In this document: positions 13,427 through 44,193 of the stretch, in pieces | Numbering within the stretch: the first letter of the stretch is position 1 | How the letters are laid out: every line of letters begins with the position of its first letter | Assembly (NCBI GenBank): GCA_964462865.1 | Contig: CAYWZO010000002.1 | Span: forward strand, 820-64,819 | DNA from: an uncultured Dehalococcoidaceae bacterium | Lineage (GTDB): Bacteria > Chloroflexota > Dehalococcoidia > Dehalococcoidales > RBG-16-60-22 | Direction of reading: 5' to 3' | Length of the DNA: 64,000 bases | The notes under the pieces: generated by a model | Seen by the model: the letters and a program-made list of their open reading frames with translations, nothing else | Databases searched by the model: none | What the model was told of the DNA's origin: nothing | Position numbers and translations under genes: made by a program

Positions 13427-13951
13427 TTAGTTATCCGGTTCATTCTCCAGTATCCGGCCCCCGGCAAACCCGCCCATCTCCCGAAGCGTGGCCGCGTAAG
13501 GTAGTTCAGGATGCAGCCCGCGGCGTTTCATCTGGCGCCACCGGATAACATACTCTATAATGGAAAGCGCCCGGCGTTTCAGTCTTTTCTGTTGTAGCAG
13601 ATATATCAAATCCACAATCAAATGGAACAGCATCCCCCAAAGAGCCGCCCTGACCCATAGCCAGCCGGTAACAGCACTGGCTCCGTACACCAGGAGCAGC
13701 CACTCCACGGTGTGCCCGACATTTAAACCCAGGAAGTTTTTTCCCTTACCCCTCTCAAACAGCCGATCGTGAAAAGTGAACGTATTCCTGACACTGAAGT
13801 CCTGAAAACCGTTGCGGTAGAGATAGTCCAGATAATGGTCGCCGTCAACCAGTACCGAAGCAGCCAGAAAGACGGCGCTGTAGGGCCCCAGGACGGGAAC
13901 GAGCGCCGCTGCGGCGATACCTCCGGAGAGCGCGTGATATCGGACTTTCAT
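13427..13951 (-). CDS. Small membrane protein, DUF457/YdjM-like putative metal-dependent hydrolase
   Basis: His/Asp motifs in TM context (YHALSGG, VDGDHYLDY, GHTVEW, FHLIVD). The ATG at 13951 avoids the 32-nt overlap implied by the track start at 13993. It is the last gene of the minus-strand operon. Confidence 0.45.
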   Translation of the reverse strand: MKVRYHALSGGIAAAALVPVLGPYSAVFLAASVLVDGDHYLDYLYRNGFQDFSVRNTFTFHDRLFERGKGKNFLGLNVGHTVEWLLLVYGASAVTGWLWVRAALWGMLFHLIVDLIYLLQQKRLKRRALSIIEYVIRWRQMKRRGLHPELPYAATLREMGGFAGGRILENEPDN

Positions 13952-13961
13952 TATCGCTTGA

Positions 13962-15203
13962 TTACCGTCCTTCCTTGGTGGTGATATTATCACCCGTCAC
14001 CGTTTCCGGCATGTTCTCCGCCGCGGTATATAGTTCGAGCCGGCCCAGACTCAAAAAGGCCGGGTCATATATCGACAGACGGTAGTGTTTGAAGTCCGCT
14101 TCGAGATTAAGAGAAAAACTGACCCAATTATCGGTCAGGCTGTCCCGTTCAAGCTCCAGAGCAGCGAGCACCTGCCAGTCTTCCCCGTTGGCACTGGCTT
14201 CCAAGAAGGCCGTCGGCCCGTTCCAGAGCTGTCCGGTCAGCCCCGCCCGGGGTAAAATACGTAAAACCTGGACAGACGCCGGTTCCGGCAGTGAAAAGGC
14301 CACCCGGGCGGGCACTTCCTGGCGAGGCGTTTTCAGGTGCCAGAAGCCGCTGGTGCCCGCTTGAATAAGAACACGCCCGTCCATACCTTCCTGTAAAGCG
14401 CTGCTGACCTGTATTGTCGCGGGATCAATCACCAGCTTTTTCAGACCGACAATACTGTCAACCCCCGCGACGCCGGGCACCGACAGGGGAGCTTCCGGCA
14501 GCCTGATATTCTGCCCCTTTAGCGGCGGCGTGGCTGCCACGGTAGGAATGGCCGGCACCGCGGGACCGCTCCCCCTTAGCTGATACAGCTCCAGCCGGGC
14601 GATGGAGACAAAGTCCATATCTTCAATATATAGGCGGTAATGCTCGCGGGCTTCCGGCACCAGCACCAGGAAATCGAGCCAGACGTCGCCCGGCGGCCAG
14701 GGGACGATGCCCAGCGAGGCCGCGGACTCCCAGTCCCGCCCATCATCGCTGACCTGCAGCAACGCCTTGTAGCCGCGCCACATCAGGTGGCCATTTCCCC
14801 GGCGCGGGAGCAACCGCAGCAGGGCCACCGGCCGCGGTTGGTCCAGGGTTACCGCCACCCAGTCGACCTGGCTGCCCCGCTTGGGGACCCGGACATGCCA
14901 GAACCCATCCACCCCGGGCCGCAACAGCGCCGCCTGGTCCATCCCCGGCTGAAAAACGCTGCTGACCTCTATCCGTTCCGCCTGTAAGGGTATCTTTTCA
15001 TAGGGCGACAGGTCTATCCCGGTCACGCCCAGGACCGGCGCCACTCTGGCCGGCAGGTCATTTATCAGGGAGATGGTTGCTGTCTGGCTGCCATTTTTAT
15101 CAGCGCCGCAGCCTGATAGCAACGCTACCCCCGTTAACGCGAGGGCTATCAGAGCGCTGCACCGGGGCCAGAATCGATTGTTTAGTTTGTGTATATTTTT
15201 CAT
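13962..15203 (-). CDS. Lipoprotein with two tandem discoidin (F5/8 type C)-like domains
   Basis: Lipobox LLSGC. Each half carries GFWH(V/L)(R/K)xP, W(V/A)xV(T/A)L, LR(L/I)LPR, S(D/A)(D/N)GxDW, HYRL and ARLELY. Confidence 0.8.
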   Translation of the reverse strand: MKNIHKLNNRFWPRCSALIALALTGVALLSGCGADKNGSQTATISLINDLPARVAPVLGVTGIDLSPYEKIPLQAERIEVSSVFQPGMDQAALLRPGVDGFWHVRVPKRGSQVDWVAVTLDQPRPVALLRLLPRRGNGHLMWRGYKALLQVSDDGRDWESAASLGIVPWPPGDVWLDFLVLVPEAREHYRLYIEDMDFVSIARLELYQLRGSGPAVPAIPTVAATPPLKGQNIRLPEAPLSVPGVAGVDSIVGLKKLVIDPATIQVSSALQEGMDGRVLIQAGTSGFWHLKTPRQEVPARVAFSLPEPASVQVLRILPRAGLTGQLWNGPTAFLEASANGEDWQVLAALELERDSLTDNWVSFSLNLEADFKHYRLSIYDPAFLSLGRLELYTAAENMPETVTGDNITTKEGR

Positions 15204-15210
15204 GCCATCT

Positions 15211-43019: not shown

Positions 43020-43034
43020 ATTCGGCCCCCCCTG

Positions 43035-44021
43035 TTAGTGAGATAGGTAGGCAAACCAGTCCCTGGTGGCTACCGCGATGGTATCCGGTGTCCAGACCGG
43101 TGCCTCCTTCCAGTAATCTATGTTCTCCAGCAGGATGCGTGCGCCTTCCTCCAGCGATACCCGGGGCTGCCAGCCCAGCATCTTTCGTATCCTGGTGATA
43201 TCGGCGTGGGTACAGTCAGGTTCGCCAGGCCGTTTGGGGATATGGACAACCTCTCCCCCCAATAGTTGCACCAGCCGGTTAACAGTATAGGTTTGCCCGC
43301 TGCCTACGTTCAGCACCTGGTCTCTGATATCAGATTCGGCGGCCATGACCAGGGCATCCGTCACATCACTGACGAAAGTAAAGTCCCTGGTCTGCCGGCC
43401 ATCACCGACCACGGTGAAGGGTCTGCGGTGCAGCTTTTGCGCCAGGAACACCCCGAAGACCGCCCCGTAGACCCCCGATGTCCGGGAACGCGGGCCGTAG
43501 ACATTAAACAGGCGGAGCGAAAGTACCGGCAGCCGGTAAACCTGGCCCCAGTGAAGGGTGCACTGCTCGCCCAGGTATTTAGTCAGGGCATAGGGGTATT
43601 GCGGCCGTATCTCCGCGGTCTCCGGCGTCGGGTATTCGTCCGGGATGCCATAGCAGGAGGAAGACGCCACATAGATAAACCGTTTGACACCCGCCTGGCG
43701 GGACGCCTCCAGCAGATTAACGGTGCCGCCAACGTTGGAACGGTAATAGGTGAGTGGATTCTGGATGGAGGGGACAATATCGGCCAGCGCCGCCAGGTGA
43801 AAAACCCAGTCAATATTGGCTAATTGAGGCCTTAAAGCTTCCCCATCGGCGATGTCTACCCGTTGCGCCTGGAAATTCCGGTCACCACGGAGATGGGCCA
43901 GGTTCTCCGGACGCCCCGTGCTGAAATTATCCAGGACGGTCACCTCATGACCTCCCTGCAACAAGCGGTCAACCAGATGGCTTCCGATAAATCCGGCGCC
44001 GCCGGTCACCATAGCTTTCAT
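43035..44021 (-). CDS. NAD-dependent nucleotide-sugar epimerase/dehydratase (extended SDR, UDP-Glc 4-epimerase / UXS-like)
   Basis: MKAMVTGGAGFIGSHLV, YALTKYLGE. ATG at 44021 follows GGAGG. The ORF-track TTG start is at 44048. Confidence 0.8.
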   Translation of the reverse strand: MKAMVTGGAGFIGSHLVDRLLQGGHEVTVLDNFSTGRPENLAHLRGDRNFQAQRVDIADGEALRPQLANIDWVFHLAALADIVPSIQNPLTYYRSNVGGTVNLLEASRQAGVKRFIYVASSSCYGIPDEYPTPETAEIRPQYPYALTKYLGEQCTLHWGQVYRLPVLSLRLFNVYGPRSRTSGVYGAVFGVFLAQKLHRRPFTVVGDGRQTRDFTFVSDVTDALVMAAESDIRDQVLNVGSGQTYTVNRLVQLLGGEVVHIPKRPGEPDCTHADITRIRKMLGWQPRVSLEEGARILLENIDYWKEAPVWTPDTIAVATRDWFAYLSH

Positions 44022-44164
44022 TAATAAAGTTTTTCCTCCGTGTCCCAAACTTCCTTGCTGTAAAACGCAAGTATTTTTACCTGAAAAACATTGAAATACT
44101 TATTAATAAGCAAACATTTATCTAAACGTTGACGTAATGCTTGACGTTACATGACATTTATGGC

Positions 44165-44193
44165 ATTATAAACAATAATAATACTTTTGTCAA
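44165..44193 (-). promoter_or_regulatory. Perfect consensus sigma70-type promoter TTGACA-N17-TATAAT on the minus strand, driving the 21-gene operon
   Basis: The minus strand reads TTGACA (44193-44188), aaagtattattattgtt, TATAAT (44170-44165). It lies in a visibly AT-rich 390-nt intergenic region. Confidence 0.65.

Follow-up and report, generated by a model that had tools for sequence, protein, structure and literature searches.

The DNA described here is a 64,000 nt stretch (the window; position 1 is its first letter) of a contig from an uncultured Dehalococcoidaceae bacterium (CAYWZO010000002.1, positions 820–64,819). It contains an operon of 21 genes, g1 to g21, for which we favour, on balance, a role in surface-glycan assembly by way of a polyprenyl-phosphate-linked sugar and extracytoplasmic transferases of the GT-C type. 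This proposal draws on gene order, domain content, paralogy, conservation of gene blocks, taxonomy and the remote GT-C homology of g7, all of which were computed here. An earlier reading of the same DNA, made from the sequence alone, had described the operon and suggested much of this scheme, and Pfam and NCBIfam searches confirm all of its domain calls except that of CotH.

The open reading frame (ORF) listing shows exactly 21 ORFs in unbroken succession on the minus strand between 44048 and 13427, behind a sigma-70-type promoter at 44165–44193 (-) that matches the consensus at 12 of 12 positions (TTGACA-17-TATAAT) and lies approximately 115–145 nt upstream of g1, as the sequence-only reading had it. 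Its account of the junctions is reproduced throughout, with a largest gap of 101 nt (at g3/g4) and overlaps of 14 nt (g5/g6), 44 nt (g15/g16), 4 nt (g16/g17) and 8 nt (g17/g18). Two extra overlaps, of 53 nt at g14/g15 and 32 nt at g20/g21, are artefacts of choosing the longest ORF start and vanish with the starts that homologue alignments support (24408 for g15 and 13951 for g21); g1 probably begins at an ATG at 44021, which is preceded by GGAGG. Minus-strand terminator-like matches are all weak, all within coding sequence and no more numerous than in shuffled sequence, in keeping with the earlier view that there is no convincing internal terminator. Given the tight junctions, the perfect promoter and the lack of any terminator excess, a single transcript for the 21 genes is plausible. 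The promoter is in a 391 nt AT-rich divergent intergenic region (44049–44439), in which two copies of ACGTCAA just 3' of the operon -10 box could form an operator, and an 11/12 promoter at 44363–44392 (+) serves an aldehyde:ferredoxin oxidoreductase gene.

That these genes came together by chance is rejected, because the blocks g1–g11, g11–g15 and g16–g20 recur, each with its gene order kept, on separate metagenome contigs, at about 45–80% identity; conservation of the neighbourhood in relatives had been set beforehand as a refuting test, and these blocks are conserved. The order of g1–g11 is identical on two contigs (L008 and L009, 42–80% identity), and a g14-like gene is found together with g15, g16, g17, g18, g19 and g20 on four others (L001–L004). 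The P0006 contig has genes for a triple-discoidin protein, a VTC protein, a DUF4956 protein, a g14-like protein and g15 beside g16–g18. L006 and L007 carry shuffled mixtures of these genes, L006 being a longer assembly of the same sequence; a homologue of a 491-residue protein encoded just left of our operon lies next to g21, a radical S-adenosylmethionine (SAM) gene and g7 in L007, and L006 also holds homologues of g8, g15 and g10 and an E1-beta-type gene.

The strongest link to GT-C enzymes is that of g7 (35473–37593, -), whose polytopic, GT-C-like glycosyltransferase part is followed by a LamG/ConA-like beta-sandwich at the C-terminus, as assigned by profile and fold comparison. It matches no Pfam family even at E values up to 10, and its distant sequence matches are all of one type, the TPR/PMT_2 'O-mannosyltransferases' (P0019–P0021). 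An hhalign comparison of the g7 family (A3; 10 close homologues) with one of these (P0020, carrying Pfam PMT_2, PF13231) gives a probability of 96.5% (E 1e-9) over 190 columns covering the N-terminal helices. Directly after the first transmembrane (TM) helix, in the first outer loop, the acidic residues D45 and D50 (T-L-x-D-x-P-R-S-D) are invariant in nine homologues and align with a D..DD stretch of P0020. The AlphaFold2 (AF2) model of g7 is weak (pLDDT 57, pTM 0.50), and the membrane proteins that it matches in Foldseek are limited to STT3 (yeast and human) and PglB (TMq 0.30–0.33 over 500–590 columns, E about 2e-3 to 1e-2); every other match is to the C-terminal LamG-type sandwich (jelly rolls). 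From the distant sequence matches, the profile alignment and the invariant acidic residues above all, g7 can reasonably be taken as a remote GT-C enzyme. Genes for HD-domain phosphohydrolases adjoin g7 homologues in two relatives (L006, 11795–13120, -; L090, 1515–2885, +), and none is present in the window's operon.

Three further polytopic proteins form a separate family with no detectable relationship to g7. The closest pair, g17 (18580–21243, -) and its paralogue g19 (15211–17409, -), share 38% identity over 726 aa by BLASTP; g17 has a GT-C-like membrane domain followed by two C-terminal discoidin domains, and g19 has one such domain, seen as a weak Pfam F5_F8_type_C match. Protein g16 (21240–23132, -) is a paralogue of their membrane domain (hhalign of the g16 family, A1, against g17/g19, A2: probability 97.6%, E 3e-12, 359 columns) with a C-terminal soluble domain of its own and no discoidin domain. 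Neither g16 nor the membrane parts of g17 and g19 match a Pfam family even at E values up to 10. In the AF2 model of g17 the TM part has pLDDT values of 70–90, and of the 50 Foldseek matches listed a single one is a membrane protein, the mycobacterial arabinosyltransferase AftD, the rest being dominated by discoidin domains. An exhaustive profile search places g16, g17 and g19 within a wider family of 302 clusters (at 50% identity) of about 500–600 aa proteins that has no Pfam model. The one Pfam family that recurs in it is PMT_2 (4 of 60 members, best E 7e-7); a further member scanned separately (P0150) matches DUF2079 (E 1e-4), several members carry discoidin arrays, and one has the carbohydrate-binding module (CBM) CBM_AftD. 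Thus a GT-C nature for g16, g17 and g19 is suggested indirectly, by the AftD fold match and by PMT_2 in distant members. The four GT-C-like proteins of the sequence-only reading therefore divide into g7, reasonably established, and three that are connected by indirect links; the structural comparison that it proposed, made for g7 and g17, returned STT3/PglB and AftD as the only membrane folds, at low scores and from models of limited confidence. Among distant members of the wider family, the 2069-aa P0121 has nine discoidin domains and CBM_AftD, and another has a faint PGF-CTERM match that hints at archaeal members.

Lipid loading would fall to g6 (37598–38353, -; 251 aa), a family 2 glycosyltransferase (GT2; Pfam Glycos_transf_2, 83 bits) and candidate polyprenyl-phosphate glycosyltransferase of the Dpm1/ArnC/GtrB type. 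Its best match among solved structures is ArnC (9hwj; residues 13–225, E 2e-7); PfDPMS and GtrB are also matched, and full-domain alignments are restricted to ArnC, PfDPMS and AglJ-type enzymes. The call of a single GT2 holds, and its Dpm1/ArnC-like character is favoured by the ArnC match across the full domain. The g6 gene is directly upstream of g7, an arrangement also seen in ArnC/ArnT. For translocation of the lipid-linked sugar the locus offers g15 (23089–24489, -), a MOP-family (Wzx-like) flippase with 12 predicted TM helices and a Polysacc_synt match above the Pfam cutoff (33.4 versus 28.2 bits), as had been proposed; its homologue alignments begin at residues 30–38, consistent with the start at 24408. 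The sequence-only reading had recognised no initiating phosphoglycosyltransferase, Wzy, Wzz or ABC exporter, and Pfam and NCBIfam likewise give no match to a phosphoglycosyltransferase, Wzy, Wzz/PCP or ABC exporter in the 21 proteins or the flanks, so a hidden canonical pathway of this kind was rejected. The unclassified membrane proteins of the locus are g21 and the 491-aa plus-strand protein.

Most of the genes before g11 have predicted functions in sugar chemistry. Two encode extended short-chain dehydrogenases/reductases (SDRs) that are 29% identical: g1 (43035–44048, -), of the nucleoside diphosphate (NDP)-sugar epimerase/4,6-dehydratase type (Pfam Epimerase and GDP_Man_Dehyd, E 1e-60), whose NCBIfam matches to GalE, LegB and a heptose epimerase are all under cutoff, and g3 (40479–41471, -), an epimerase/reductase (Pfam Epimerase, E 3e-37). 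Between them g2 (41484–43019, -) joins an N-terminal nucleotidyltransferase to a C-terminal PfkB sugar kinase (Pfam CTP_transf_like and PfkB); it is HldE-like with the domain order swapped, and is not an HldE equivalog (best NCBIfam match HldE, 142 bits versus a cutoff of 521). Scored separately, its domains reach 104 and 87 bits against ADP-heptose-pathway cutoffs of 181 and 345, and a PDB search places the kinase half closest to HldA (4e84). The g4 and g5 genes (39388–40377 and 38340–39377, both -) encode the alpha and beta subunits of a thiamine-diphosphate E1 enzyme (Pfam E1_dh, E 4e-79, and Transket_pyr with Transketolase_C), for which Pfam and NCBIfam scans of the window proteins found no E2 or E3 partner. 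Pyruvate dehydrogenase-like E1 pairs, AviB1/B2 and Pau11/12, have been implicated in the addition of two-carbon branches to 4-keto sugars (PMC4425429). A DegT/PseC-type sugar aminotransferase, g9 (32826–33983, -; Pfam DegT_DnrJ_EryC1, E 1e-107), lies between two B12-binding radical SAM enzymes that are 26% identical, g8 (34013–35425, -; Pfam B12-binding and Radical_SAM) and g10 (31298–32794, -; Pfam). The best matches of g8 and g10 are HpnJ, AprD4 and C-methylase types, all under cutoff (the best NCBIfam match of g8 is HpnJ, at 222 bits); together with the DegT enzyme they suggest amination and C-methylation or rearrangement. A hopanoid-type pathway was set aside, the matches to HpnA, HpnB, HpnJ and HpnR all being far under cutoff and to generic families, and no Rfam match to a riboswitch or other known RNA (such as a cobalamin riboswitch for the B12 enzymes) was found in the whole window. 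A third type of B12-radical SAM gene is kept alongside the system in relatives and is absent from the window; its product is about 28–29% identical to g8, and the gene is convergent on g20 or just before g7 (L001 16687–18126, -; L002 16761–18206, -; L006 1304–2737, +; L007 2593–4026, +).

The starting sugar may be of the heptose type. Three plus-strand genes at 10353–13423 converge on the end of the operon, of which the leftmost (10353–10943, +) encodes a GmhB-type heptose 1,7-bisphosphate 7-phosphatase that exceeds its curated cutoff (NCBIfam NF006506, 189.3 versus 178 bits). In L001 the g16 homologue is immediately preceded, on its upstream side, by a GmhB homologue with 56% identity, and GmhB is probably part of the pathway although it is beyond the operon. 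A heptose-type start is plausible given that GmhB adjoins the operon and that g2 is HldE-like with an HldA-like kinase half; these two points support the earlier guess of a heptose. The second convergent gene (11058–11939, +) encodes a DUF1616 membrane protein (Pfam DUF1616, E 2e-58) that has no homologue in L001–L009, and is translationally adjacent to the third (11948–13423, +), which encodes the 491-aa polytopic protein with at least nine TM helices and a soluble C-terminal part. This protein has no Pfam, PDB or profile link, and none to the g7 or g16/g17/g19 families; a homologue with 46% identity lies beside g21 in L006/L007, and both aligned sequences have the same motif, H-x-D-E-W-x-H-Y, just after the first TM helix. 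Possible roles for the protein are those of a fifth extracytoplasmic GT-C-like transferase, a polymerase or a ligase. As the GmhB and 491-aa genes are conserved with the system in relatives, the interval 13427–44193 originally proposed is correct for the operon, but the functional locus extends leftwards to about 10353. The last operon gene, g21 (13427–13993, -), encodes a small membrane protein with a weak YdjM-like match (Pfam E 0.59) that is conserved at 55–63% identity in L002, L006, L007 and L008. In L002 a sensor histidine kinase gene and then a 232-aa ORF lie just downstream of the g21 homologue (19703–22780, +); the window itself has response regulators and a kinase fragment at 113–2346, far from the operon.

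Pfam identifies F5/8-type-C (discoidin) domains in g11, g14, g17, g18, g19 and g20, and BLASTP shows that these modules are all mutually related; with the LamG-like C-terminus of g7, recognised by fold, they account for the lectin-type modules described previously. Three proteins carry paired F5_F8_type_C stretches. By pattern matching, which is the sole basis of the lipobox calls, g18 (17445–18587, -) and g20 (13962–15203, -), the latter with an internal repeat visible by BLAST, are predicted double-discoidin lipoproteins with lipoboxes IISC and LSGC, each at residues 29–32. The third, g11 (30070–31281, -), is secreted or lipid-anchored, with an N-terminal hydrophobic segment and the non-canonical lipobox GTSC, so that two of the three proposed double-discoidin lipoproteins have canonical signals but g11 is off-pattern.

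Adjacent to g11 are three genes that resemble a trio described elsewhere. The g12 product (29290–30060, -) is a predicted cytoplasmic VTC-domain protein, polyphosphate-polymerase-like and with no TM helix (Pfam VTC, 80.8 bits versus a cutoff of 23), and g13 (28576–29244, -) encodes a DUF4956 membrane protein with at least three TM helices (43.2 versus 30.6 bits). The 1374-aa g14 (24437–28561, -) is a predicted signal-anchored surface protein (Pfam F5_F8_type_C, Beta_helix and sub-threshold CotH) with a weak CotH-like region, a LamG-like region, a discoidin domain and a C-terminal right-handed beta-helix, in which many residues, several of them acidic, are invariant across three aligned homologues; g14 homologues bear Laminin_G_3 and CBM_AftD. 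Its CotH match (residues 285–347) is sub-threshold (E 0.019, 14.9 bits versus a cutoff of 23.8) and is seen in two of three homologues, and of the CotH/DUF4956/VTC triad noted earlier the VTC and DUF4956 members are thus secure but CotH is not. CotH, polyphosphate-polymerase and DUF4956 genes are a published accessory of Gram-positive pel loci with an unexplained function (PMC7112168; bioRxiv 10.1101/2024.04.20.589940). A role of g12–g14 in anti-phage defence was considered and rejected, there being no PADLOC match.

Taken together, these predicted functions can be arranged in a six-step scheme. The g2 enzyme and the neighbouring GmhB would turn a heptose-type sugar phosphate into a nucleotide sugar, which the g1 and g3 SDRs, the DegT aminotransferase, the E1 pair and the two B12-radical SAM enzymes would then tailor, the E1 pair adding, in the manner of AviB1/B2 and Pau11/12 on 4-keto sugars, a two-carbon branch; the sugar would emerge aminated, C-branched or C-methylated. 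On the cytoplasmic side of the membrane g6 would move it onto polyprenol phosphate, and the lipid-linked sugar would be flipped, g15 being the sole candidate in the locus. Outside, g7 and g16/g17/g19 would transfer the sugar onto an acceptor or a growing chain, with the LamG and discoidin modules and the lipoproteins g11, g18 and g20 binding the glycan. Finally, g14 with g12 and g13 would form an accessory processing set, as beside the Gram-positive pel loci. Polymerisation and simple decoration of an acceptor are both compatible with the sequence, which does not decide between them.

Several observations weigh against this scheme. A single GT2 would need to feed four or five transferases, and g6 itself is far below all NCBIfam equivalog cutoffs (for ArnC, 37 versus 529 bits) and has neither a TM helix nor interface helices by hydropathy, so that it lacks the membrane helices of ArnC and GtrB. 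MOP flippases usually move diphosphate-linked oligosaccharides rather than monophosphate-linked monosaccharides. On the sugar side, g2 is far under the HldE cutoff, and no GmhA was found in the window or in the related loci L001–L009 by tblastn with an E. coli GmhA query, although the gene could be elsewhere in the genome. Nothing in Pfam, the PDB or profile comparison ties g16/g17/g19 directly to GT-C: the g17 family profile finds no match in the PDB, hhalign of the family against P0020 is negative, the AftD match of g17 has a TM-score of about 0.26 and could be partly CBM-driven, and confidence in the structure models is low to moderate (pLDDT 57 and 66). The system is also scarce. The g17 family numbers eight proteins in a set of 5.8 billion; a third homologue search with a merged profile recovered the same eight only, and an exact-sequence look-up of the window's g17 gave no match. 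No g17 homologue came up in a pattern scan of 185,579 species-representative genomes, and for that reason the system is taken to be rare within Dehalococcoidales themselves and no core part of the envelope machinery.

The same evidence allows other interpretations. One, which we think unlikely though it deserves a hearing, is that two separate systems share the transcription unit: g1–g11 would carry out an ArnC/ArnT- or GtrB/GtrC-like single-sugar decoration, placing a rare amino sugar on an acceptor already present, for example an S-layer protein or a membrane lipid, and g14–g20 would use a different donor, possibly an undecaprenyl-diphosphate-linked oligosaccharide made elsewhere and flipped by g15. 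The usual cargo of MOP flippases would fit this arrangement, as would the lack of relationship between the g7 and g16/g17/g19 families and the occurrence of g1–g11 alone on L008/L009 and of g14–g20 without g1–g10 on L001–L003. However, the contigs are short, and a gene missing from a contig may still be in the genome. The blocks also intermix, with g15 and g21 directly upstream of g1 in L008, homologues of g7, g8, g15, g10 and E1-beta joined on the L006 contig, and the 491-aa protein homologue, g21, the radical SAM gene and g7 joined in L007, and no second lipid-sugar synthase or phosphoglycosyltransferase is seen in any of these loci. It is decidedly less probable that g7 is the only GT-C enzyme and that g16/g17/g19 are non-GT lectin scaffolds, polymerase/ligase-type proteins or exporters. 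The absence of a direct sequence or profile link from these three to a GT-C family or solved structure would be explained, the fold evidence is a single match of low TM-score, and g16 does not strictly retain the acidic pair E49/E50 that g17 and g19 have. Yet the polytopic proteins have no transporter or Wzy family match in Pfam even at E values up to 10, PMT_2 is the sole recurrent Pfam family in the distant members (with one DUF2079 match), AftD is the lone membrane protein among the listed g17 matches, and the architecture is Emb/AftD-like, with an N-terminal polytopic domain, conserved acidic or His residues in the first outer loop and C-terminal carbohydrate-binding modules.

A bolder extension of our proposal, which we hold to be very unlikely as a whole, is that an undescribed g16/g17/g19 GT-C family polymerises a wall-like glycan and that g14 phosphorylates this glycan with polyphosphate. 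Here g16/g17/g19, g7 and the discoidin lipoproteins would build a layer in a bacterium that lacks peptidoglycan by polymerising a C-branched amino-heptose supplied by a polyprenyl-monophosphate donor, and the VTC and DUF4956 proteins would synthesise and export polyphosphate for the ATP-starved extracytoplasmic CotH-like domain of g14. If true, the polyphosphate part would amount to a bacterial version of the VTC machine that makes and translocates polyphosphate in eukaryotes, joined to a glycan kinase of the Fam20 kind. Least credible, to the point that we give it almost no weight, is a secondary-metabolite cluster, for example for a heptose-containing nucleoside or aminoglycoside-like compound. 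Antibiotic deoxysugar pathways typically include E1 alpha/beta, B12-radical SAM, DegT and HldE-like enzymes (PMC4425429), and there are sub-threshold NCBIfam matches to AprD4 and KedN5-type enzymes, but the locus has neither a scaffold-forming enzyme nor, besides the Dpm1/ArnC-like GT2, a Leloir glycosyltransferase, half of its products are extracytoplasmic lectin-domain or polytopic proteins, and CotH/VTC/DUF4956 are otherwise tied to exopolysaccharide loci (PMC7112168).

Surface-glycan assembly through a polyprenyl-phosphate sugar and outward GT-C enzymes, the reading that we prefer, has several precedents. The sequence-only reading was aware of no described system with this combination, and that was overstated, the logic being known from Emb/Aft, from AglD/AglR/AglS and from the pel accessory set. 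Mycobacteria build arabinan with a polyprenyl-monophosphate sugar and several CBM-bearing GT-C enzymes. As in mycobacterial and corynebacterial arabinan and mannan assembly (EmbA/B/C, AftA-D and MptA-C), one lipid-monophosphate donor would feed several paralogous outward GT-C enzymes with C-terminal carbohydrate-binding modules; AftD is the membrane fold matched by g17, and CBM_AftD is present in g14 homologues and in the wider family. However, the locus proteins have no detectable sequence homology to Emb/Aft, the lectin modules are discoidin and LamG, a MOP flippase is present, and the host order lacks a peptidoglycan or arabinogalactan anchor. The donor would also be made differently, by a GT2 acting on a nucleotide sugar, whereas the mycobacterial decaprenyl-phosphate-arabinose donor is made by a phosphoribosyl pyrophosphate/UbiA-DprE route.

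The order g6 then g7 mirrors the pairing of a GT2 lipid-sugar synthase with a GT-C enzyme in ArnC/ArnT (with ArnE/F) and GtrA/GtrB/GtrC, and the Arn pathway, whose ArnC is the closest solved structure to g6, also has an aminotransferase-tailored sugar. The differences are that g6 has no TM helices and a low ArnC equivalog score, that g7 has a LamG-like domain and is closer to the PMT_2/TPR proteins, that the flippase is of the MOP rather than the SMR or GtrA type, and that there are three to four extra GT-C-like proteins. In Haloferax volcanii AglD/AglR/AglS, a GT2 charges polyprenol phosphate, a MOP protein is implicated in flipping and an outward transferase completes the pathway (PMC3871713). 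The same triad is proposed here and both hosts are wall-less and S-layer-bearing, but the archaeal system adds a single mannose to an existing N-glycan (PMC3871713), while the sugar of our locus would be heavily tailored and no AglB/oligosaccharyltransferase was identified as such. The likeness to the pel accessory set lies in VTC and DUF4956 proteins above Pfam cutoffs beside a large secreted protein with a CotH-like stretch in an exopolysaccharide-type locus, and the trio is kept on the P0006 contig; unlike the pel loci, there is no pel synthase (PelF/PelG), CotH is sub-threshold, and g14 is far larger, with added LamG, discoidin and beta-helix regions. Finally, E1 alpha and beta subunits without E2/E3 amid SDR and aminotransferase sugar genes recall AviB1/AviB2 and Pau11/Pau12 (PMC4425429), a likeness of gene setting; those pairs are in actinomycete antibiotic clusters and this one is in an apparent cell-surface glycan context. 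The overall logic is thus probably that of known GT-C systems, and current concepts are therefore not overturned, with most of the locus proteins in undescribed families.

Dehalococcoidales are abundant subsurface bacteria. The host belongs to this order as judged by its flanking genes, a NuoF-type fusion protein being 84–89% identical to proteins of metagenome-assembled genomes named as Dehalococcoidales or Chloroflexi. Ancestral-state reconstruction places loss of peptidoglycan synthesis at the ancestor of a clade including Dehalococcoidales, and cultivated members have S-layers (PMC10284905). The locus is thus a concrete candidate pathway for glycans that cover or modify the S-layer of Dehalococcoidales, and as a rare and lineage-restricted system it bears on envelope glycobiology in a lineage that lacks a wall. 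At least two membrane-protein families without a Pfam model, those of g7 and of g16/g17/g19, are defined by the locus, in which the unexplained CotH/VTC/DUF4956 trio is met in a further, independent setting that is phylogenetically distant. The locus also places E1-type two-carbon branching and B12-radical SAM chemistry, mainly known from antibiotic sugars, in an apparent cell-surface glycan pathway.

The operon does not appear to be a mobile island, as there is no tRNA, no notable repeat and no compositional break, and its GC content is like that of its flanks. The flanks encode anaerobic redox and alpha-glucan metabolism. To the left, at 2353–10268 (+), are genes for a formate-dehydrogenase-like molybdopterin subunit, a NuoE-like protein, the 1019-aa NuoF/GltD-type fusion on which the taxonomic placement is based, and methylenetetrahydrofolate reductase, and this group looks like an electron-bifurcating module tied to one-carbon metabolism. 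Within the same region two ORFs overlap on opposite strands (8591–9631, -, and 8720–9370, +), neither with a Pfam or NCBIfam family. To the right, at 54875–62905 (+), is an alpha-glucan (GlgE) pathway row encoding a DUF3417/phosphorylase-family protein, GlgE and a TreS-maltokinase fusion.

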